The position numbers were made by a program, and so were the translations under genes. The notes below the pieces were generated by a model. The model was not told the origin of the DNA and made no database searches. It worked only from the letters and a program-made list of their open reading frames with translations. From Paraconexibacteraceae bacterium (lineage in GTDB: Bacteria > Actinomycetota > Thermoleophilia > Solirubrobacterales > Solirubrobacteraceae): a DNA stretch of 64,000 nt. Positions 6,654-57,602 of the stretch are shown here, piece by piece. Positions within the stretch are counted from its first letter, which is position 1, and every line of letters begins with the position of its first letter. Where the stretch lies: the NCBI GenBank assembly GCA_963757775.1, contig CAVWSH010000001.1, forward strand, positions 494,803 to 558,802, given 5' to 3'.

Positions 6654-6901
6654 GCCGGCACGTGTGGTCCCCCGGGCCGCTCGCCTCGGGCGCTGTGGAA
6701 CCGGCCGGTCTCGCCGAGCGCGAAGCCGACTTGATCGTCTCCGTCCTGCGCCGCGAGGGTCCGCTCGACGCGCGGACGCTGCGCAGGCGCGTCGAGGCGC
6801 GCCTGTGGGGGCCGGGCCGCTACGGCCCCGCCCTGCGGCGCGCCGTGCGCGATGGCCGCGTGCGCCGGCTCGGCCGGCGCACCTGGGCCGCCGTCGACTG
6901 A
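6650..6901 (+). CDS. Hypothetical protein (83 aa), start overlaps the MFS stop (ATGA)
   Basis: ATG at 6650 overlaps TGA at 6651-6653. Arg-rich; possibly winged-helix. Weak support. Confidence 0.35.
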   Translation: MSRHVWSPGPLASGAVEPAGLAEREADLIVSVLRREGPLDARTLRRRVEARLWGPGRYGPALRRAVRDGRVRRLGRRTWAAVD

Positions 6902-6989
6902 GAGAACGTCCGGCTTCGGCCGCGGGGACCCGCCTTCGGCGGCCTGTCTGCGTCCGGTCGGCCTGCGCCAGCGAGCCGCCCCCGGCGCC

Positions 6990-7364
6990 CTAACCGAGCT
7001 CGACGCCGCGCTCGGCGAGCAGGGCCCGGACGCCGTCCGGAGGATGGCCGGCGAACTCGGCCCGGGCGGCCAGTGCGAGCAGCTCGTGGGGCTCCTCGTC
7101 CACCTCGTCGCGCCGGAAGGCCAGATAGGTCGCGACCGCCGCGGCGAGCTGCACGGCCGGGTCCTCGGCCTGCGGGTCCAGCTTGCCGGCCTCCTCGGCG
7201 ATGCGCTGGGCGGCGATCTCCGCGCCATAGCTGCCGACCGGCTCGTCGTCGTCCTCGAAGCGCTCCAGGAGGTCCTCGATGCCGGCCACGCCCTCGGGGT
7301 CGACGGCGACGACGGCGCGGTGGACGATGGCGGCGAGGGTGACGGGTGCGGGGTCGGTGGGCAT
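6990..7364 (-). CDS. Hypothetical acidic protein (124 aa)
   Basis: The ORF has protein-like acidic composition. No domain recognised. Confidence 0.5.
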   Translation of the reverse strand: MPTDPAPVTLAAIVHRAVVAVDPEGVAGIEDLLERFEDDDEPVGSYGAEIAAQRIAEEAGKLDPQAEDPAVQLAAAVATYLAFRRDEVDEEPHELLALAARAEFAGHPPDGVRALLAERGVELG

Positions 7365-7413
7365 CCTCGTCAGGTTCCCGCGTGACGCCGCGCCAAACGG
7401 CTAGCGTGCCGGC

Positions 7414-8265
7414 ATGGCCACCATCGCCGCACTGGGCACGGGCGTCATGGGCGCTCCGATGGCCCGCAATCTCGCCCGCGCGGGCCACGAGGTCCGCGCC
7501 TGGAACCGCAGCCCGGACAAGGCGTCCGCGCTGCGCGACGACGGCGTCGACGTGCGCGACGATCCCGCCACGGCGGCGGCGGGCGCCGACGTCGTGCTGA
7601 CCATGCTGTCCGATGCCGACGCCGTGCTCGACGTCGCGCGCCGCGCGCAGCTCGCCGAGGGGCAGGTCTGGTGGCAGGCGTCCACCATCGGCATCGAGGG
7701 CATCGAGCAGTGCGCGGCCCTCGCCCAGGAGACGGGCGCCGTGCTCGTCGATGCGCCGGTGCTCGGCACCAGGCTGCCCGCCGAGGAGGGCAAGCTCGTG
7801 GTCCTGGCCTCCGGCCCGGACTCCGCGCTGGACACCCTGAGTCCGCTCTTCGAGGCCGTCGGGCAGCGGGCCATGCGCCTCGGCCCGGCGGGCACGGCGA
7901 CGCGCTTGAAGCTGGCCGTCAACCTGTGGGTCCTGGCCGTGACCCAGGGCACGGCGGAGACGATCGCCTTCGCGCAGTCGCTGGGCGTCGAGCCGCAATG
8001 GGTCCTCGAGGCGCTGGAGGGCGGCGCGCTGGACCTGCCCTACTTCCGCATGAAGTCGAAGCTCATGCTCGACGAGGACTTCCCCGCGTCGTTCGCGCTC
8101 GCGCTGGCGGCCAAGGACGCGCGCCTGGTGGCGAGGGCCGGCGAGCGACACGGCGCGGACCTGCCGGTCGCCGCGGCCATCGCCGAGCGCTTCGCGAGGG
8201 CCACCCAGGCCGGCCACGGCGAGGAGGACATGGCCGCCACCTATCGCCTCTCGAAGCCGAGCTGA
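7414..8265 (+). CDS. NAD(P)-dependent beta-hydroxyacid dehydrogenase (3-hydroxyisobutyrate/6-phosphogluconate dehydrogenase NAD-binding family)
   Basis: N-terminal IAALGTGVMGAPMARNLARAGHEVRAWNRS Rossmann motif; 283 aa. Confidence 0.85.
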   Translation: MATIAALGTGVMGAPMARNLARAGHEVRAWNRSPDKASALRDDGVDVRDDPATAAAGADVVLTMLSDADAVLDVARRAQLAEGQVWWQASTIGIEGIEQCAALAQETGAVLVDAPVLGTRLPAEEGKLVVLASGPDSALDTLSPLFEAVGQRAMRLGPAGTATRLKLAVNLWVLAVTQGTAETIAFAQSLGVEPQWVLEALEGGALDLPYFRMKSKLMLDEDFPASFALALAAKDARLVARAGERHGADLPVAAAIAERFARATQAGHGEEDMAATYRLSKPS

Positions 8266-13595: not shown

Positions 13596-14528
13596 ATGTC
13601 AGAGCCAAGCCCTGACGACATCCAGCCGACCGAGCACGAGACGCTCGACCGCATCGCGACGGGGACGGTCAGCATCGTGCCCTTCCTCGCGCTCGGCATC
13701 GTCTGCTGGCAGGTGTGGAACTCGCTCCTGCACTGGAGCGACATCGCCGTCTTCGGGATCCTCTACGTCCTCACCGGCTTCGGCGTGACCGTCGGCTTCC
13801 ACCGGCTCTTCACCCACCGCGCGTTCGCCACCACGCGCTGGCTGCGCGGGGTCCTGGCCGTGTGCGGCTCCGCCGCCATCGAGGGGCCGGTCATCTCCTG
13901 GGTGGCCGACCATCGCAAGCACCACGCGTTCGCCGATCAGCCCGGCGACCCGCACAGCCCCCACGTCGATCACGGCGTCGGCTGGCGCGGCGCCCTGCGC
14001 GGCCTCGGCCACGCGCACATGGGCTGGCTCTTCCTGCACACCCAGCGCGGGTCGCGCAAGCGGTATGCGCCCGACCTGCTCGCCGACCCGGTCGTGCGCT
14101 TCGTCGATCGCACCTTCCTCTACTGGGCCATCGGCGGCCTCGGCACGGCGTTCGGGCTGGGCTGGCTCATAGGCGGCACCTTCACCGCCGCGCTCACCGG
14201 CCTGCTGTGGGGCGGCGCCGTGCGGCTGCTCGTCCTGCACCACGTGACCTTCTCGATCAACTCGCTGTGCCATTTCTTCGGACGCCGGCGCTTCGAGACC
14301 GGCGACGAGTCGCGCAACCTCGCATGGCTCTCGCTGCTGTCCTTCGGCGAGGCATGGCACAACAACCACCACGCCTTCCCGACCTCCGCGGCCCACGGGA
14401 TGCGCTGGTACGAGCTCGACACCTCCAGCCTGCTCATTCGCGGCCTCGAGCGCGTCGGGCTCGCGTGGGACGTCGTACGCATCGATCCGGCACGCCAGCA
14501 GAAGAAGCTGCTGGCCGACACCGCGTAG
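13596..14528 (+). CDS. Acyl-CoA (delta-9 type) fatty-acid desaturase
   Basis: Three His boxes (HRLFTHRAF, HRKHHAFAD, HNNHHAFP) and 4 TM segments. Confidence 0.9.
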   Translation: MSEPSPDDIQPTEHETLDRIATGTVSIVPFLALGIVCWQVWNSLLHWSDIAVFGILYVLTGFGVTVGFHRLFTHRAFATTRWLRGVLAVCGSAAIEGPVISWVADHRKHHAFADQPGDPHSPHVDHGVGWRGALRGLGHAHMGWLFLHTQRGSRKRYAPDLLADPVVRFVDRTFLYWAIGGLGTAFGLGWLIGGTFTAALTGLLWGGAVRLLVLHHVTFSINSLCHFFGRRRFETGDESRNLAWLSLLSFGEAWHNNHHAFPTSAAHGMRWYELDTSSLLIRGLERVGLAWDVVRIDPARQQKKLLADTA

Positions 14529-14531
14529 ACG

Positions 14532-15782
14532 TTGGCCCTCGCGAAGACCGCTCCCCTGCGCGCCGCGCTGGCGCAGGCGCTCCCCGAGCGCCCGTTCAGC
14601 GTCGGCTTCTGGGACGGCACCGAGGTGCCGGCGACGGCCCCCGGGCCGCGCTTCACGGTGCGCTCGCCGCGCGCCGTCGCCCACGCGCTCTACGCCCCCG
14701 GCCAGCTCGGCCTCGGCCGGGCCTACGTGTCCGGCGAGCTCGACGTCGACGACATGGACGCGACGATCGCCCTGCTGCAGACCTGGACGCCGCCCACCCT
14801 CGACCGGGCGGCCAAGGCCCGCCTCGCCCTCGCCGCGGCGCGGGCGATGGGCCTCGAGCGCCCGCCGGCGCGGCCCGCATCAGAGCTCGTGCCCGAGGGG
14901 CGCCGGCACTCGATCGCCCGCGATCGCCGCTCGGTGCGCCACCACTACGACCTGCCGGCGGAGTTCTTCGCGCTCTTCCTCGACGAGTCGATGACCTACA
15001 GCTGCGCGGTGTTCTCGCGCGGGGCGACCACGCTCGAGGAGGCCCAGGAGACCAAGCTCGAGCTCGTCTGCACCAAGCTGGGCCTCAAGCCGGGCGAGCG
15101 CCTGCTCGACGTCGGCTGCGGATGGGGCAGCTTCGCCGTGCACGCCGCGGTCAACCACGGCGTCCAGGTCACGGGCATCACGCTGTCAGGCCCCCAGGCC
15201 GAGCGGGCTCGCGCGCGCGCCGAGGAGGCCGGCGTCGCCGACCGCGTCGACATCCGCGTTCAGGACTGGCGCGAGCTGGCCGGGGAGCGCTTCGACGCGA
15301 TCGCCTCGATCGGCATGGTCGAGCACGTCGGCAACGTCCAGATCGACGCCTACGCCCAGCGCCTGCGCGACCTGCTCGAGCCCGAGGGGCGCCTGCTCAA
15401 CCACGGCATCGCCCGCGTGCGCCACGGCGACCCCGAGGCGGGACCGTTCTCGGAGCGCTACGTCTTCCCCGACGCCGCCCCGCTGCACGTCGGGCGCGTG
15501 CTGAGCGCTTTCGAGCGCGCCGGCCTGCCGGCCGACCACATCGAGGGCTTTCAGTCCGACTACGCCGAGACGCTGCGCCACTGGGCGACGCGCCTCGACG
15601 AGAATCTCGACCGGGCGCTCGAGCTGGCCGGGCCCGAGCGCGTGCGGATCTGGCGCCTGTACCTGCGCGCCGCACGAGCGGGCTTCACCACGGGCTTCAC
15701 CTCGATCTACCAGGTCCGCGCGGCGCCGCACGGCGTCGTCCTGCCGCCCGTCGGCGCCGAGAGCGCCGCGGTGAGCGCCTAG
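14532..15782 (+). CDS. cfa: Cyclopropane-fatty-acyl-phospholipid synthase family SAM-dependent methyltransferase
   Basis: HYDLPAEFFALFLDESMTYSCAVF and the SAM motif LLDVGCGWGSFAVHAA. TTG start 3 nt after the desaturase stop. Confidence 0.85.
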   Translation: MALAKTAPLRAALAQALPERPFSVGFWDGTEVPATAPGPRFTVRSPRAVAHALYAPGQLGLGRAYVSGELDVDDMDATIALLQTWTPPTLDRAAKARLALAAARAMGLERPPARPASELVPEGRRHSIARDRRSVRHHYDLPAEFFALFLDESMTYSCAVFSRGATTLEEAQETKLELVCTKLGLKPGERLLDVGCGWGSFAVHAAVNHGVQVTGITLSGPQAERARARAEEAGVADRVDIRVQDWRELAGERFDAIASIGMVEHVGNVQIDAYAQRLRDLLEPEGRLLNHGIARVRHGDPEAGPFSERYVFPDAAPLHVGRVLSAFERAGLPADHIEGFQSDYAETLRHWATRLDENLDRALELAGPERVRIWRLYLRAARAGFTTGFTSIYQVRAAPHGVVLPPVGAESAAVSA

Positions 15783-15909
15783 CCGCCGCAGTCGTCCGCA
15801 GCGCGCTCGGCGCGCCGCGATATGGGGTGCATATGCAAGGGCATTGCAACCCGTGGCCCTGGGTATTGCGCGGTCGACGCACACCCGTGAGGGCACAGGA
15901 GGGAGAGCC

Positions 15910-16704
15910 ATGGCGACGCGCTCGAACCGCGGTTCGCGCTCGAACCGTGCCAACGGACGGGCTTCGTCCGAGGCCAAGCGGTCCGAGAAGGACCTGCCGG
16001 ACTACTCGATGATCGATCCCAAGGAGATCGAACAGGCGATCGACGTCTACGTCGATGCCCCGGTCGTCAACGTCGACGAGATCAACTTCGAGCTCGACGA
16101 CCTGAGGGCGCACCTCGCCGTGCTGGCCGAGGCCGGCCGCTTCGTCGAGCTCAACGTCGGCGCCGGCGTCCGGCTGGGCAAGGTCGAGCTCGAGATCAAG
16201 GGCGTCCAGACCCAGGCGCTGCTCGAGGCGCGCCTGCACAACGTGACCGGCATCCTCGCGCGCGTGCTGACCACGCTGGACCGCAACCCCGAGCTGCTCA
16301 AGAGCGTCGGCGAGGCGCTGGGCGACGTCGGTGGCGGCGCCCACGACCTGCTCACCGACACGGGCGACGTGGTGAAGAGCGCCGGGAAGGGCGCACAGAG
16401 CGCCCTCGGGGACGTCGGCCGCGGCGCCGGGAAGGGCGTGGCCAGCCTGGGCCAGGGCGCAGAGCAGGGCGTCGAGGGCTTGGGACAGGGCGCAGAGCAG
16501 GGCGTCGAGGGCTTGGGACAGGGCGCCCAGCAGGGCGTCGAAGGGCTCGGACAGGGCGCCCAGCAGGGCGTCCAAGGGCTCGGCCAAGGCGCCCAGCAGG
16601 GCGTCCAAGGGCTCGGCCAAGGCGCCCAGCACGGCGTCCAAGGGCTCGGCCAAGGCGCCCAGCACGGCGTCCAGGACCTCGGGCAGGGAGGCGGTGGTCG
16701 CTGA
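15910..16704 (+). CDS. Repeat protein A (264 aa): basic N-terminus, unassigned ~95-aa conserved module, Gly/Gln 11-residue repeats
   Basis: GGAGGGAG SD before the ATG at 15910. Paralogous to the next gene over VDEINFELDDL...TLDRNPELL. Carries 7 x GLGQGAQQGV[EQ]. Confidence 0.7.
   Translation: MATRSNRGSRSNRANGRASSEAKRSEKDLPDYSMIDPKEIEQAIDVYVDAPVVNVDEINFELDDLRAHLAVLAEAGRFVELNVGAGVRLGKVELEIKGVQTQALLEARLHNVTGILARVLTTLDRNPELLKSVGEALGDVGGGAHDLLTDTGDVVKSAGKGAQSALGDVGRGAGKGVASLGQGAEQGVEGLGQGAEQGVEGLGQGAQQGVEGLGQGAQQGVQGLGQGAQQGVQGLGQGAQHGVQGLGQGAQHGVQDLGQGGGGR
16450..16680 (+). repeat. Seven tandem 33-bp coding repeats (GLGQGA[EQ][QH]GV[EQ])
   Basis: Read directly. Adjacent units differ by 0-3 nt in a stepwise gradient. 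Confidence 0.9.
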
Positions 16705-18014
16705 TGGCCTCCAAGCCGACATCGCAGCGCTCGTCCTCGCGTCGCGGCCAGAGCGGCGCCTCCCGCAGCCGCAGGGCCTCGTCCGCCGGGCGCCAGCAGG
16801 CCGGCCGCAACGGAGACGGGCTGCGCCCGGCGCAGCAGGCGCGCCACGAGATCAACGAGTCCGACCGCGAGTACCGCAAGTACGTGCACGAGGACGAGCA
16901 GGACCGGGTCGGGCCGCCCGACGTGCTGCTCGACGTGCCCGAGCTGCGGATCGACACGATCCACTTCGAGCTCGACGACATCGATGCCCACGTGGCCCTC
17001 AAGGCCAGGGTCTTGAACCTGGTCAAGCTCAACGTCGGCATCGACCTTCACCTCAGCCGGGTCAAGCTGGACGTCAAGGGCGTGGAGGCCGAGCTGGTGA
17101 TGAAGGCCCGGCTCGACCACGTCGCCGCGATCGTCGATCGCCTGATGACGAGCCTCGATCGCAACCCCGAGCTGGTCAAGGGACTGAGCCGGGCGGTCTC
17201 GGAGGTGGGCAAGGGCGCGGGCGAGGCCGTCGACAAGACGGGCGACGCCGCGAAGGACATCGGCAAGGGCGCCCAGTCGACGCTGAAGGACGTCGGGAGG
17301 GGCGCCGGCGAGGCGACGGGCGACCTGGGCGAGGGCGCCGGCCATGCCGTGGGTGACATCGGACAGGGGGCCGGGCAGGCCGTCGGCGACGTCGGCCAGG
17401 GCGCCGGGCACGCCGTCGGCGACGTCGGCCAGGGCGCCGGGCAGGCCGTCGGCGACGTCGGCCAGGGCGCCGGGCACGCCGTCGGCGACGTCGGCCAGGG
17501 CGCCGGGCAAGCGGTCGGGGACATCGGCCAGGGCGCCGGGCAGGCGGCGGGCAGCCTCGATCAGCTCGTCGGCGGCGTCGGCCAGACGCTCGGCCAGGCC
17601 GGCCAGGCGGTCGGCGGCGTCACCCAGGGCGCCGGGCAGGCCGGCCAGGCGCTCGGCGGCGCCGGGCAGGGCCTGCTCCCGGGCGGGGACGGCAGCGCGC
17701 AGCAGGCGCAGTCCAACGGCGCGCCCCCGGCCGCGGCCAAGCCGAGCGCGCTGGCCAAGGAGATGGCGAAGGTCGTCGCCCGCGAGATCGGTCACGCGGC
17801 GTCGGAGGAGGCGCGTGATCTCGGGCTCGCCGCCACGCGCAAGGTGCGCGAGCTCGGCGAGCGCCGCGAGCAGCGCCGCGCCGAGAAGTACAAGGCGACC
17901 GAGGCGGCCGTTCGCATCGCCGACGAGCTGGGCGTCGACCTCACCGAACTCCACGGCACCGGCAGCGAAGGCCGCATCACGGTGAGGGACGTGCGCGAGG
18001 CACAGGAGGCGTGA
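16704..18014 (+). CDS. Repeat protein B (436 aa): same conserved module, 11-residue GQGAG[HQ]AVGDV repeats, C-terminal peripheral-subunit-binding (E3-binding)-like domain
   Basis: ATG overlaps the upstream TGA (TGATG). The C-terminus ATEAAVRIADELGVDLTELHGTGSEGRITVRDVREA matches the PSBD signature (..GVDL....GTG..GRIT..DV). Confidence 0.75.
   Translation: MASKPTSQRSSSRRGQSGASRSRRASSAGRQQAGRNGDGLRPAQQARHEINESDREYRKYVHEDEQDRVGPPDVLLDVPELRIDTIHFELDDIDAHVALKARVLNLVKLNVGIDLHLSRVKLDVKGVEAELVMKARLDHVAAIVDRLMTSLDRNPELVKGLSRAVSEVGKGAGEAVDKTGDAAKDIGKGAQSTLKDVGRGAGEATGDLGEGAGHAVGDIGQGAGQAVGDVGQGAGHAVGDVGQGAGQAVGDVGQGAGHAVGDVGQGAGQAVGDIGQGAGQAAGSLDQLVGGVGQTLGQAGQAVGGVTQGAGQAGQALGGAGQGLLPGGDGSAQQAQSNGAPPAAAKPSALAKEMAKVVAREIGHAASEEARDLGLAATRKVRELGERREQRRAEKYKATEAAVRIADELGVDLTELHGTGSEGRITVRDVREAQEA
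17328..17558 (+). repeat. Seven tandem 33-bp coding repeats (GQGAG[HQ]AVGD[VI])
   Basis: Read directly. Units 3 and 5 are identical. Alternating CAC/CAG (His/Gln) units. Confidence 0.9.
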
Positions 18015-18238
18015 TGGATCGCGAGCCGGACGTCGAGATCGCGGCGCTCGCCCGAGCGGACGAGGTGCGCTTCGAAGGCAAGCCGCAGGTCGGCGTGCGC
18101 GCGTACTCCAATGCCCCGGCGAGCGCCGAATCGGTCTCCGAGCGCGAGAACCTGCCCGACGAGATGCAACCCGGAGTCACCTACCGCAACGTCTCGGTGC
18201 GCTGGCGACTGGCCGCGCGCCTGGACGATCCAGAGTGA
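18014..18238 (+). CDS. Small hypothetical protein C (74 aa)
   Basis: ATG at 18014 overlaps the upstream TGA (TGATG); GTG at 18011 is an alternative start. No domain recognised. Confidence 0.5.
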   Translation: MDREPDVEIAALARADEVRFEGKPQVGVRAYSNAPASAESVSERENLPDEMQPGVTYRNVSVRWRLAARLDDPE

Positions 18239-18252
18239 AACAGGAGGAAGCC

Positions 18253-18819
18253 ATGGCCCAGTCCAACCGCAGCACCAAGAGCACCGCGAGCCCCGGCAAG
18301 CGATCGGCGAGCGCGTCGAAGCCCCGCGCGAGCCGCGCGGCGAAGCCCGCCGGCAGCCGGGCGAACGGCTCGACCCCCAAGCGCAAGCCGGCGAGCACGA
18401 GCGCCAGCCGCAAGCGGTCGACCGCGCGCACGACCGCAGGCCAGAGGCGCGCGACGAACCAGTCGGCCAACGGCAACGGCGCGCTCGACAAGGTCACCGG
18501 CGCCGTGACCACCACCGCTCGGAGGGTCCGTGTGCCCGCTCTCGCCGGTGGGGCCGCGGCCGCGGCGGCGGCGGTGGCCGGCGGCGCCCTGGTCAAGCGC
18601 CAGCTCGCGCCCAAGCGGCGCAAGGTCCTGGGCGTGACGGTGCCCCGGCCCAACGTCGATGGCCTGCTCTCGGGCGGGCTGGACCTCAAGCCGATGGCCA
18701 AGGGGATCGCGAAGGCGGGCAAGCGCGTCGCGAAGACCAGCCAGCAGCTGAGGAAGCTCTCCGACGACGTGGAGCAGGTCGGCAGGACGGCCCAGAAGGT
18801 GGGCGACTCGCTCTCCTAG
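18253..18819 (+). CDS. Highly basic protein D (188 aa) with a Ser/Thr/Lys/Arg-rich N-terminus, an Ala-rich hydrophobic segment and an amphipathic tail
   Basis: AGGAGG at 18242-18247 before the ATG at 18253. KPRASRAAKPAGSR...KRKPASTSASRKRS tail-like region; VPALAGGAAAAAAAVAGGALV hydrophobic stretch. Confidence 0.6.
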   Translation: MAQSNRSTKSTASPGKRSASASKPRASRAAKPAGSRANGSTPKRKPASTSASRKRSTARTTAGQRRATNQSANGNGALDKVTGAVTTTARRVRVPALAGGAAAAAAAVAGGALVKRQLAPKRRKVLGVTVPRPNVDGLLSGGLDLKPMAKGIAKAGKRVAKTSQQLRKLSDDVEQVGRTAQKVGDSLS

Positions 18820-18887: not shown

Positions 18888-20141
18888 ATGTCGACTGCCC
18901 AGACCGACGCCGCAACGACGACCCCGCCCGAGCCCGATCTCACGCCCGATGAGCTGATCGCGCGCGCGATCGCCCTGCGGCCCGAGCTCATCGAGCACCA
19001 GGCCGACGCCGAGGCGCGGAGCTTCTACTCCGAGCAGATGCACCAGAAGTTCCTCGACGCCGGCTTCTACCGCACCTACATCCCGCGTCGCTACGGGGGC
19101 TACGAGTTCGACGTCAAGACCATGACGCGCCTGCAGCTCGAGCTGGCGCGGGGCGACATGTCGACCGCGTGGTGCGTGGGCCTGGCCAGCAACCACGCGC
19201 TGCAGGTCGCGTCGTGGTTCCCCGAGGAGGCGCAGGCCCAGGCGCTGGGCGACGGCACCTTCCGCGCCGCGTCGGTGGCCGCGCCCACCGTGGCCGCGAC
19301 GCCGGTCGACGGCGGCTGGGAGCTCAACGGCACCGTCGCCTACTGCTCGGGCATCCCCTACTCCAACTGGTACGTCGGCCAGGCGATCATGCCCGGCAAG
19401 CAGGACAACGGCGAGCCGCGCGTGATGCTCTTCATGGCGCCCGAGACCGAGTGGGAGATGCTCGACGACTGGGGCACGTCGCTGGGCCTGAAGGGCAGCG
19501 GCTCGCACAGCATCCGCTTCGAGGGCGCGCGGCTGGCGCCCCACCTCGTGCTCGAGGACACGAACATGATCGACGTGGACCCGAGCACCACGCCGGGCCT
19601 CGCGCTGCACGGCAACCCGCTCTACTGCGGGCGCGCGCTGTGCGTCTTCACCATGTCGGTCGCCGGGCTCGTGGTCGGCGGCGCCTACAACGCCCTCGAC
19701 GAGTACGAGAACTGGATGCGGGCCAAGACCACGCCGCTGCCGCCCTTCATCAAGCGCACGGGGGACCCCGACTTCCAGCGCTGGTACGGCTCGGCGGCGG
19801 CCAAGATCGGCATGGCCGAGGCGGCGCTCATGAACTGCGCCGACCAGCACATGGAGCGCTGCCGCCAGCAGGCCTCGGGCGAGCGGCCGTACACGTGGGA
19901 GGACGACCTCTACATCTCGACGATCGCGCGCGAGGCGATCCTCTTCGCCTGGGAGGCCGTCGAGCACGATCTCTACCGCACCATCGGCTCGAGCGCGGCC
20001 AACGCGGGCCAGCGCTTCGAGCGCGTCTTCCGCGATCTGGCCATGGCGGCCGGCCATCGCAACTCGATGATGCGCGACCCGCTCGTGCGCCAGCTCGCGC
20101 AGCTGCGACTGGGCGTCGTGCCGGCCGGGATGCAGCGATGA
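18888..20141 (+). CDS. Acyl-CoA dehydrogenase-fold flavin-dependent monooxygenase (HsaA/DszC/HpaB-C2-like)
   Basis: ACAD-like three-domain layout without the catalytic Glu context. LGLKGSGSHSIRFEGARL block. 417 aa. Confidence 0.75.
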   Translation: MSTAQTDAATTTPPEPDLTPDELIARAIALRPELIEHQADAEARSFYSEQMHQKFLDAGFYRTYIPRRYGGYEFDVKTMTRLQLELARGDMSTAWCVGLASNHALQVASWFPEEAQAQALGDGTFRAASVAAPTVAATPVDGGWELNGTVAYCSGIPYSNWYVGQAIMPGKQDNGEPRVMLFMAPETEWEMLDDWGTSLGLKGSGSHSIRFEGARLAPHLVLEDTNMIDVDPSTTPGLALHGNPLYCGRALCVFTMSVAGLVVGGAYNALDEYENWMRAKTTPLPPFIKRTGDPDFQRWYGSAAAKIGMAEAALMNCADQHMERCRQQASGERPYTWEDDLYISTIAREAILFAWEAVEHDLYRTIGSSAANAGQRFERVFRDLAMAAGHRNSMMRDPLVRQLAQLRLGVVPAGMQR

Positions 20142-20542
20142 GCGTCGCCGACGAAGGCTACGAGCGCGGCCTGGCCACCCGGCGCGAGGTGCTCGGCGAC
20201 GAGCACGTCGATCGCTCGCTGCGCTCGGCCACGGAGTTCACGAGCGTGGCGCAGGAGTTCGTGACCGAGTACTGCTGGGGCGCCGTGTGGACGCGCCCGG
20301 GACTCGATCGGCGCACGCGCAGCCTGATCAATCTCGGGATGCTCACGGCGCTGGGCCGCATGCACGAGTTCCGCGCGCACGTGCGCGGCGCGGTCAACAA
20401 CGGCTGCACGACCGATGAGATCCGCGAGACGCTGCTGCAGGCCACGGTCTACTGCGGCGCCCCGGCGGGCCTCGAGTCCTTCCGCGAGGCCCAGGTCGTG
20501 CTCGACGAGCTGGCCGCCGAGCGCGACGGCGCGCCCGCCTAG
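20138..20542 (+). CDS. Carboxymuconolactone decarboxylase family protein (PcaC-like)
   Basis: WTRPGLDRRTRSLINLGMLTALGRMHEFRAHVRGAVNNGCTTDEIRETLLQATVYCGAPAG is the classic CMD block. ATGA overlap with the upstream gene. Confidence 0.85.
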   Translation: MSVADEGYERGLATRREVLGDEHVDRSLRSATEFTSVAQEFVTEYCWGAVWTRPGLDRRTRSLINLGMLTALGRMHEFRAHVRGAVNNGCTTDEIRETLLQATVYCGAPAGLESFREAQVVLDELAAERDGAPA

Positions 20543-41441: not shown

Positions 41442-41765
41442 CTAGGCGCGCCGGCCGATCCGGCGACCGATCAGAAAGCCGACGAGCAGCGCGCCGCCGA
41501 TCGCGATGGGAGCCGGGTGCTCGCGTGCGCTGGTCGCGACCTGCTGGGCGCCGCCGCGCGCCGAGTCCGGCGTGTGGCGCAGCGCGTTGTCCTTGGCCTC
41601 CTGGACGTTGGCCTTGACCTCCTGCACCTTCTCGCGGGCCTGGGCCTTGACGTCGGCCTTCAGCGCGAGCTGCGCGACGGTCTCGCCGAGCTCGCGGCGG
41701 ATCTCCTCGATCTCGCGGCGGAGCTGCTCGGGGTCGGTCTGCTGTTGGTTGGGGGGCGTGCTCAT
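41442..41765 (-). CDS. DUF3618 domain-containing protein
   Basis: DPEQLRREIEEIRRELGETVAQLALKADVKAQAREKV plus a C-terminal TM segment. ATGA overlap with the upstream gene. Confidence 0.7.
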   Translation of the reverse strand: MSTPPNQQQTDPEQLRREIEEIRRELGETVAQLALKADVKAQAREKVQEVKANVQEAKDNALRHTPDSARGGAQQVATSAREHPAPIAIGGALLVGFLIGRRIGRRA

Positions 41766-42172
41766 TGCCGGGCCTCCTGGGCGCGCTGCTTGGTGTAGCG
41801 CACGTCCTCCTTGACGCTCTGCACGGTTCGCTCGGGCAGCGGCGGCGTCGCCTGCTGCACCTTCTTCTTGCCGCGGAGCGCGAGGATACCGGCGACGGCC
41901 CCGTAGAGGGCGGCGACGATCAGCGCCGAGGCCCACACGGGCAGCACCTCGGCGATGCCGGCGATGATGGCGGCGGTCAGGGCGCCCAGGGCGTAGAGGC
42001 CGAGAGCTCCGGCGCCGCCGAACATGCCGGCCCCCACACCGGCGCGCTTGCCCTTGACCCGCAGCTCCGCCTTGGCGAGCTCGACCTCGTGGCGAACGAG
42101 CTCGGTCGTCTGGTTGGAGAGCTGGCGCGCGAGGTCGGCGAGCGAGCGCTCGTGGTTCGCCTGGGATTCCAT
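41762..42172 (-). CDS. Phage-holin-family (Holin-X/PF07332-like) membrane protein
   Basis: SLADLARQLSNQTTELVRHEVELAKAELRVKGKRAGVGAGMFGGAG... with two TM segments. A common actinobacterial partner of DUF3618. Confidence 0.7.
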   Translation of the reverse strand: MESQANHERSLADLARQLSNQTTELVRHEVELAKAELRVKGKRAGVGAGMFGGAGALGLYALGALTAAIIAGIAEVLPVWASALIVAALYGAVAGILALRGKKKVQQATPPLPERTVQSVKEDVRYTKQRAQEARQ

Positions 42173-42246
42173 GTCCTTGCGGCTACCCGCGACCGCTCGC
42201 CGCCATGCAGTCAGGCACGCCGGGCGCCGCCGCGACCTGTGACAAG

Positions 42247-56265: not shown

Positions 56266-57602
<1,337 letters not shown>

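Follow-up and report, generated by a model that had tools for sequence, protein, structure and literature searches.

What do four consecutive nameless genes, tied together by overlapping stops and starts, build in a soil-type actinobacterium? The genes, here called A, B, C and D, lie on the + strand of a 64-kb window (64,000 nucleotides (nt) of contig CAVWSH010000001.1, assembly GCA_963757775.1) from a Paraconexibacteraceae bacterium. Coordinates below are positions in this window unless a related locus is named. The original prediction, made from the sequence, saw in the four genes an undescribed system: a cytoplasmic scaffold, coat or condensate, linked to stress or to lipid surfaces, that can dock a 2-oxoacid dehydrogenase component. 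Our analysis points to a structural coat or scaffold of the general stress response or of stationary phase and dormancy, not to an enzyme system, and we give this reading a probability of roughly 40%.

The open reading frame (ORF) list of the window contains all four genes with the anatomy that had been described for them. Gene A (15910-16704) encodes 264 residues (isoelectric point (pI) 5.0), comprising a basic Ser/Arg-rich N-terminal tail (1-34), a module (45-130) and 12 eleven-residue repeats, or hendecads. Gene B (16704-18014, 436 residues) starts with a 1-nt overlap with the stop of A, and the acidic 74-residue protein C (18014-18238) starts with the same overlap with the stop of B. At both junctions a TGATG (16702-16706 and 18012-18016) makes stop and start share one base. 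Gene D (18253-18819), which encodes 188 residues with a pI of 12, is preceded by an AGGAGG ribosome-binding site (18242-18247) in front of its ATG at 18253, and the ATG of A is preceded by a Shine-Dalgarno-like AGGAGGGAG (15897-15905). A and B are paralogues, as predicted, with 45% identity over 238 residues (E 1e-56). The net charges are -10 for A, -8 for B, -5 for C and +32 for D, and the N-terminal tails of both A and B are basic.

The idea that these are artefact ORFs was rejected by codon-position GC, conservation and synteny. GC3 is 0.91, 0.95, 0.85 and 0.96 for A, B, C and D, and codon-position GC speaks for coding throughout. The sense frame of D is 82% identical to that of the nearest related locus, L001, versus 62-68% for the long antisense ORFs, and distant relatives are detected by the sense frame only.

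Neither enzyme motifs nor signal peptides had been seen in the four proteins. Pfam and NCBIfam scans likewise show no enzyme domain, and no stretch of A, B or C is hydrophobic enough to act as signal peptide or membrane-spanning helix. The module shared by A and B, like A, C and D, matches no Pfam or NCBIfam family at E<=1, beyond a sub-threshold score of A that is driven by its repeats. For A-D, the NCBIfam scan adds matches of E2 models to one region of B, discussed below, and two negligible matches. PADLOC profiles gave no match, PHROGs gave weak tape-measure matches to the repeat region only (E 2.6e-5 to 3e-3), and a sequence search of the PDB returned matches to the same region of B only. 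Across Pfam, NCBIfam, PADLOC and PHROGs, A-D therefore have no substantial enzyme, defence or phage family match.

The ordered heart of A and B is the module (16042-16299 in A; 16920-17177, residues 73-158, in B). Column statistics over 138 family members show a strict alternation of V/L/I/A with D/E/K/R/N/Q along A residues 46-107, which form four long amphipathic β-strands. An amphipathic helix (109-125) and a near-invariant D-R-N-P (LDRNP) motif follow. The AlphaFold2 model of A25-150, computed as a monomer from the family alignment (pLDDT 74, pTM 0.36), has four long strands (22-38, 41-51, 55-65 and 68-83) and two helices. Foldseek searches with this model against the PDB and BFVD gave a best E of 0.24 and TM-scores below 0.3, hence no fold match; the top, non-significant hits were stem hairpins of pore-forming toxins and ribosomal proteins. 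The claim that the module belongs to no named family thus stands, both in Pfam and NCBIfam and at the level of PDB and BFVD folds.

Protein C is the second ordered part. It has 380 homologues, all of them nameless and without a Pfam match, and C itself has no family match in Pfam or NCBIfam at E<=1, as had been noted for it. Its AlphaFold2 model, built from homologues at >=73% identity (pLDDT 83.5), shows three long strands, of which strands 1 and 3 are hydrophobic on one side. Foldseek of this model against the PDB found no match (none below E 0.2, no TM-score above 0.3), so the comparison proposed for the modelled module and C led to no characterised family for either. We also considered whether C is related to the module, and profile-profile comparison shows no relationship. 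Both conserved ordered parts of the cassette are thus without a detectable relative in Pfam, NCBIfam, the PDB and BFVD.

The family to which A and B belong is large. A homologue search with A in a collection of 5.8 billion proteins yielded >1,147 homologues, all unnamed or ‘hypothetical’ and none with a Pfam domain. Among 1.84 billion representatives clustered at 50% identity, a profile built on the A and B modules detected 1,202 clusters at E<=1e-3, of which 889 also reach E<=1e-10. Every member named by its source is a ‘hypothetical protein’; the family has no Pfam or NCBIfam model and no named member. A literature search returned nothing relevant on hendecad repeats in Actinobacteria or on SRPBCC together with Asp23, two partner families described below, in Streptomyces.

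We compared 82 related loci (at least 80 from a genome scan, plus plasmid loci; numbered with an L below) by tblastn, ORF clustering and hidden Markov models (HMMs). The genome scan covers metagenome-assembled genomes (MAGs) of Solirubrobacterales and Thermoleophilaceae, Actinomadura, Spirillospora, Nonomuraea, Streptomyces, a Micromonosporaceae MAG and one Chloroflexia MAG. Further members, from the plasmid collection, belong to Deinococcus deserti VCD115 plasmid 1, D. taeanensis, Nonomuraea gerenzanensis and a Streptomyces plasmid. The nearest relative, L001, is 97% identical over the module. C or a homologue of C follows the module gene in 68 of the 82 loci, often with an overlap of 1-4 nt; these loci belong to Thermoleophilia, Actinomadura, Spirillospora, Nonomuraea, part of Streptomyces and the Chloroflexia MAG. 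It is missing from ten chromosomal Streptomyces loci, Actinomadura meridiana and D. deserti, and contig ends truncate two further loci without C. Only the window and the L001-L019 clade have the A/B duplication. The conserved core is therefore one module-repeat protein plus C, and the A/B duplication, the C-terminal domain of B and gene D are lineage-specific. This narrows the idea of four genes forming one conserved system: the module gene and C are syntenic, but a same-strand D after C recurs in L001 only.

Two plasmid loci deserve separate mention. On Streptomyces sp. WAC00288 plasmid p1 (L082), a C-family ORF (7874-8194; HMM E 7e-16) follows the module gene and is missing from the PLSDB gene table of the plasmid. 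In D. deserti VCD115 plasmid 1 (L081), the member at 6827-7714 (DEIDE_RS18140) has Thr/Gln/Asn/Val-rich rather than Gly/Gln/Ala-rich repeats and no adjoining C gene; its neighbour encodes a secreted-looking protein. The family thus reaches beyond Actinomycetota with a different repeat chemistry.

Outside the window's clade, the core is joined by other partners. A SRPBCC/Polyketide_cyc (START-fold) protein (E 4e-16) with Gly/Ala/Lys-rich extensions accompanies the module gene in 30 loci and is recurrent in Actinomycetes. In a Solirubrobacterales MAG (L020, 398-3270), an SRPBCC gene (1539-2522) lies between the gene for a module protein with a B-type C-terminal domain and C, an arrangement that ties the module, SRPBCC and C families together outside Actinomycetes as well. 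Streptomyces loci carry Asp23-family genes (E 1e-28) and a gene for a small protein with a hydrophobic N-terminus, an acidic middle and a Lys/Ala/Pro tail.

Directly after the module begin the hendecads (A131-262 and B159 to ~B328). The array of A (16300-16701) is built on the unit QGVEGLGQGAQ and contains 33% Gly; that of B (17178-17687) has ~15 units of the type QAVGDVGQGAG and 32% Gly. At the DNA level, Tandem Repeats Finder reports 33-nt arrays at 16450-16688 (7.2 copies, 91% matches) in gene A and at 17289-17641 (10.8 copies) in gene B. The strict eleven-residue periodicity noted from the sequence is real and a hallmark of the family: in 83 of 108 representatives the best autocorrelation after the module lies at lag 11 or 22, with a median Gly content of 20%. 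Among close A orthologues (P0001-P0120), 60 of 120 lengths fall into two of the 11 classes modulo 11, which means that whole 33-nt units have been gained or lost between close strains.

Hydrophobic residues occupy positions 3, 6 and 10 of the unit, which is the a/d/h pattern of a hendecad. Drawn on an 11/3 wheel, the extra Gly residues of A (positions 2 and 5) and of B (4 and 11) are predicted to flank the hydrophobic stripe on opposite sides. Arms of A and B so arranged would be suited to packing next to each other. At one end of the protein, 66 of 121 representatives carry a strongly basic tail.

One metagenome protein departs from the eleven-residue pattern. P0189 (580 residues) has a module followed by Pro-containing 14-residue repeats (GRTVEQAVPPLTxA) and ends in a 3-keto-disaccharide hydrolase/DUF1080 domain (E 1e-18).

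A link to stress comes from the region upstream of A. A generic scan for sigma-70 promoters and terminators was uninformative. Aligned upstream regions of related loci reveal a SigB/SigF-type motif, and the window has a promoter-like site of this type at 15841-15866 on the + strand (GCATTG at -35, a 14-nt spacer and GGGTAT at -10), which ends 44 nt before the ATG of A. The pattern GTT[TC]-N12-17-GGG[TCA]A precedes the module gene in 40 of 80 loci, compared with 4.3% of random 500-nt windows. Its form varies with lineage: GTTC-N15-GGGTA(T/A) in the A/B clade, GTTTGC-N13/14-GGGAAA in nearly all single-copy Solirubrobacterales, GTTTTT-N14-GGGTAT in the Chloroflexia MAG and, in Actinomadura and Spirillospora, GTTTTCGC...GGGTAG in the intergenic region between the SRPBCC and module genes. 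Even where the sequence around it has diverged, the motif is retained.

Published consensus sequences, which come from other hosts, fit the window and clade motifs. These are GTTTAA-N12-14-GGG(A/T)A(A/T) for SigB of Bacillus subtilis, with similar promoters for the nine SigB homologues of Streptomyces coelicolor (PMC8346170), and NGNTTG-N14-18-GGGTAT and GTTT-N15-17-GGGTA for SigF of Mycobacterium tuberculosis and M. smegmatis, respectively (bioRxiv 10.1101/2020.01.15.907535). In six single-copy Solirubrobacterales loci (L023, L024, L027, L028, L032 and L035), genes for RsbW/SpoIIAB-type anti-sigma kinases (HATPase_c_2; E 5e-25 for L032) lie 2-7 kb from the module gene. The cassette thus resembles members of the SigB/SigF regulon such as Asp23 in its GTTT-N12-17-GGGWA motif and in the Asp23 or RsbW genes that adjoin it in some lineages. 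Its proteins, however, have no sequence relationship to Asp23 or to other described regulon members, and its membership would follow from the motif. The motif, conserved across classes, lends independent support to the proposed stress-linked, non-enzymatic scaffold or coat.

From gene structure, paralogy, family size, synteny, strand pattern, repeat periodicity and promoter-motif conservation we infer how the assembly, its target surface and its physiological role might look. The SigB/SigF-type promoter would drive A-B-C-D as one translationally coupled transcript. A and B would be structural paralogues, each with a disordered polybasic N-terminal tail, a module of ~86 residues, an amphipathic helix and 12-15 Gly-rich hendecads. 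The alternation along the module strands would leave one face with V/L/I/A side chains only, and the synthesis of C, predicted to be a three-stranded amphipathic β-protein, would be coupled to that of the partner encoded upstream. An oligomeric core could then arise as the modules of A and B and protein C pack their aliphatic faces together or onto a lipid surface, and the hendecad arms and basic tails would project from this core. The arms may be largely unfolded in dilute solution and may fold as 11/3 amphipathic helices at an interface that is hydrophobic or poor in water, for example on a membrane or lipid body or in the drying cytoplasm. The outcome would be a protective coat or scaffold in osmotic or desiccation stress or in dormancy. 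In this lineage, the acidic C-terminal domain of B and the polycationic D would serve as adaptors, which may bind each other or other polyions.

The SRPBCC, Asp23 and RsbW partners that recur in other loci and the frequent basic tails agree with this reading, as do weak profile matches of the repeats to surface-binding families, given below. Several points weigh against it. The model of the module is of moderate confidence and describes a monomer. The repeat regions carry a net negative charge (-7 in A, -9 in B), which disfavours binding to anionic membranes, and their 4-5 Gly per 11 residues may keep them from being helical at all. Common descent of the related loci inflates the count of 40 in 80, which does not equal 40 independent events. 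All regulatory support is motif matching, and the window's GCATTG would be an imperfect -35 element. We found no expression, localisation or phenotype data for any family member. Among the partners, bacterial START-fold proteins are functionally diverse and unreliable as lipid markers (PMC13525633), and the window contains no gene for an SRPBCC, Asp23 or Streptomyces-type small partner. The genes flanking A-B-C differ in every relative.

A more specific version of the structural coat would be a new kind of interface-coating assembly. Here, an amphipathic β-sheet and 11/3 helices would together coat membranes or lipid bodies, switched by SigB/F in Terrabacteria, and adaptors (the acidic domain of B, D, START-fold proteins and Asp23) would recruit further components. 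We consider this rather speculative and, in its full form, unlikely. Carriers of the module include abundant soil lineages (Solirubrobacterales, Thermoleophilaceae), antibiotic-producing actinomycetes and Deinococcus, yet the module has no solved relative and no paper. If the link to stress promoters holds, the family would be a major unrecognised component of the general stress and dormancy response of Terrabacteria, and a new protein design for coating and stabilising cellular interfaces. The analysis defines a minimal unit, the module protein plus C, and predicts its promoter and inducing conditions. It further predicts hetero-oligomers formed via the aliphatic β faces.

In its working, the cassette would be most like two sets of repeat proteins, the LEA group 3/hydrophilin type and the apolipoprotein/perilipin/MLDS type, and each comparison suggests an alternative. 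In the first, the proteins coat lipid droplets or neutral-lipid bodies and also tether nucleic acid, as MLDS/TadA of Rhodococcus or apolipoprotein B would suggest: the β-sheet would hold the lipid core irreversibly, binding of the hendecad helices to the monolayer would be reversible, and DNA would be bound by D and the basic tails. The all-aliphatic β face followed by an eleven-residue array speaks for it. Eleven-residue-periodic repeats that bind lipid monolayers are found in apolipoproteins, perilipins, the Senescence domain of spartin, CsmC and MLDS. Among the 138 members, repeat regions have sub-threshold matches at E<=1e-3 to Apolipoprotein (8), chlorosome CsmC (2) and the Senescence domain (2), all of them surface-binding repeat families. 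The scores, however, are far below the Pfam cut-offs: A scores 11.6 bits with Apolipoprotein (PF01442) and a member from Actinomadura 24 bits, where 90 would be needed. The cassette repeats are Gly-rich and acidic, and lack the charge patterning and the basic interfacial residues of class-A apolipoprotein helices. These lipid-binding families in turn lack a β module.

Apolipoprotein B-100 combines an amphipathic β-sheet, one face of which is turned to lipid, with amphipathic helical repeats. The cassette shares this design principle only, in its long amphipathic strands and putative amphipathic helical repeats: there is no sequence or fold match (none at E<0.2 in the Foldseek search of the PDB), the scale differs, and A and B are bacterial and cytoplasmic. 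MLDS, which resides on lipid droplets, pairs an apolipoprotein-like region with a Lys-rich (PAKKA) DNA-binding tail (PMC5504291), and the polybasic tails of 66 of 121 members, together with D, would fit this pairing. Compared by description, the MLDS tail is Lys-rich, whereas the basic tails of A and B are Ser/Arg-rich and N-terminal.

The genomic context also bears on a lipid coat. A START-fold partner in 30 loci speaks for it, but bacterial START-fold proteins are rarely lipid carriers (PMC13525633). Directly upstream of A, a fatty-acid desaturase gene (PF00487) and a gene for a methyltransferase of the cyclopropane/mycolic-acid type (CMAS, PF02353, E 3e-82), 3 nt apart, form a tandem at 13596-15782. 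The original prediction had noted that the operon directly follows this desaturase-Cfa pair; the adjacency is shared by L001 only, and we found no link of the cassette to lipid-body genes, with no WS/DGAT or other storage-lipid gene in the conserved neighbourhoods. We regard a lipid-body coat as rather improbable.

The second alternative is a soluble desiccation protectant of the LEA group 3 or hydrophilin type, which has no specific surface and whose module only oligomerises. The cassette proteins share tandem eleven-residue repeats, a high Gly content (17-20% overall in A and B, 32-33% within the arrays), the lack of an enzymatic domain, an expected stress-linked expression and desiccation-tolerant hosts with group-3 LEA proteins and hydrophilins (LEA_4; DosH/DR_1172 of Deinococcus radiodurans) and with B. 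subtilis GsiB, which is SigB-dependent. Both the stress-type promoter motif and the occurrence of the family in desiccation-tolerant soil lineages, including D. deserti and D. taeanensis, agree with such a role, and some bacteria are known to have group-3 LEA proteins with 11-mer motifs, DosH being one example. Yet A and B have no LEA_4 match at E<=1, nor has any of the 138 members at E<=1e-3. Their units are rich in Gly, Gln and Val rather than in Lys, Glu and Ala as in LEA3, and LEA proteins lack both a large conserved amphipathic β module, 86 residues long here, and an obligate small β partner. Hydrophilins combine more than 6% Gly with high hydrophilicity, at a mean hydropathy of about -1 or lower. 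The Gly content of A and B lies in this range, but their grand average of hydropathy (-0.34 and -0.45) is well short of it. In the absence of a LEA_4 match, with low hydrophilicity and with sub-threshold Apolipoprotein scores, the cassette falls outside the LEA, hydrophilin and Apolipoprotein families, and a plain soluble protectant seems to us an unlikely description of it.

The docking of a 2-oxoacid dehydrogenase component (E3/Lpd or E1), which formed part of the original prediction, would depend on the C-terminus of B. Here, an Ala/Pro linker with a charged segment (17688-17894, residues 329-397; no family match) leads into a PSBD-like domain (17895-18011). Its assignment is sound: residues 401-431 match Pfam E3_binding (PF02817) with E 1.8e-9 and 38.1 bits, above the cut-off of 23.7, and in the PDB the closest sequences are PSBDs of E2 chains, including that of Thermus thermophilus E2 (E 1.4e-7). 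As in E2 chains, an Ala/Pro linker precedes the domain, and B 398-436 keeps the GTG turn and the two conserved Arg residues (positions 8 and 28 of a 40-residue alignment), which are retained in 40-42 of 43 orthologues.

The surface of the domain is a different matter. E3 and E1 recognition relies on a basic PSBD surface, whose Arg/Lys residues in helix 1 and ahead of the GTG turn touch acidic residues of the partner. The charge of the 30-residue core is -3 in B and has a median of -4 in 43 orthologues (range -7 to 0), versus 0 to +3, by hand count, in the aligned cores of four solved PSBDs. The ‘RRLARE’ and ‘T(R/K)L(R/K)GTG’ of the solved domains align to ‘VRIADE’ and ‘TELHGTG’ in B, so that three or four canonical basic positions are V/I, D/E and E/H in B and the 43 orthologues. 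Since the domain is acidic where solved PSBDs are basic, canonical docking of E3 or E1 by B is unlikely. Neither a lipoyl nor a 2-oxoacid_dh domain is found in B by Pfam or NCBIfam; the domain does not sit in an E2 context, and no 2-oxoacid dehydrogenase gene occurs in the window or the conserved neighbourhoods. PSBD tails are present in 9 of 138 representatives, in Thermoleophilia members only, and absent from all Actinomycetes, Deinococcus and Chloroflexia members examined. This confinement means that the domain does not provide the core function of the family. The PSBD membership itself thus survives, but a scaffold that docks a dehydrogenase component through it is a very unlikely explanation of the cassette, and the domain may bind another partner, perhaps polybasic tails.

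D is the last lineage-specific part. As had been described, it is strongly basic with an Ala-rich hydrophobic stretch: a polybasic Ser/Thr/Lys/Arg tail (1-95) is followed by an Ala/Gly hydrophobic segment (96-114; KD19 1.80) and a basic region (115-188). Its family is small, with 31 matches, all Solirubrobacterales-type. D-like genes lie near the cassette in eight related loci, usually on the opposite strand: after C on the same strand in L001, convergent just after C in L009, L011, L014 and, weakly, L018, and nearby in L005, L017 and L043. Candidate relatives of D elsewhere, namely the Streptomyces ‘GGYVLGRTK’ protein, the small protein of L032 and the N-terminal regions of the SRPBCC proteins, showed no relationship. 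That acidic A, B and C coacervate with D or with nucleic acids into a polyion condensate or a nucleoid-, RNA- or polyphosphate-associated body strikes us as highly doubtful: the charges are complementary, the repeats are of Gly/Gln-rich low complexity, basic tails are frequent in the family and D-like genes recur near the cassette, but most lineages with the core pair lack D, the highly ordered, conserved module and C favour a defined assembly, and no direct link to DNA, RNA or polyphosphate emerged from this analysis.

A metagenome protein of 211 residues, P0122, joins elements of A and D. After an A-type N-terminus and module comes a stretch rich in Arg and Ser that is out of register, and the end is identical to the C-terminal motif of D (…AGKRVAKTSQQ…VGDSLS). 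Either a deletion has fused A to D in nature, or the protein is an assembly or frameshift artefact.

Gas-vesicle proteins of the GvpA/J type were also considered as relatives and rejected: there was no Pfam Gas_vesicle match, and a tblastn search with GvpA core sequences found no gvp match in the window or in the 80 loci.

Downstream of D, the window contains genes for an acyl-CoA-dehydrogenase-like protein and a carboxymuconolactone-decarboxylase-family protein, with a convergent GntR/FCD regulator (18897-20542). In L001, ~6.5 kb of other genes lie between D and the acyl-CoA-dehydrogenase-like gene, which places these genes outside the cassette. An Rfam scan of the window found one tRNA gene only (57529-57602, - strand), far from the cassette, and a search for inverted repeats gave nothing of note.

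A relaxed form of the SigB/SigF-type motif has five sites in the 64-kb window, three of them directly upstream of genes, namely A, a Holin-X gene and a 124-residue ORF. The second of these sites, GCATGG-N14-GGGTAG at 42183-42208 (- strand), lies 10-11 nt upstream of the Holin-X gene (41762-42172; PF07332, E 3e-40), whose transcript may be leaderless and may belong to the same putative stress regulon as A. The third, GTTTGG-N13-GGGAAC at 7374-7398 (- strand), lies 10 nt upstream of the acidic, uncharacterised 124-residue ORF (6990-7364), which is also present in L001 (1941-2312).

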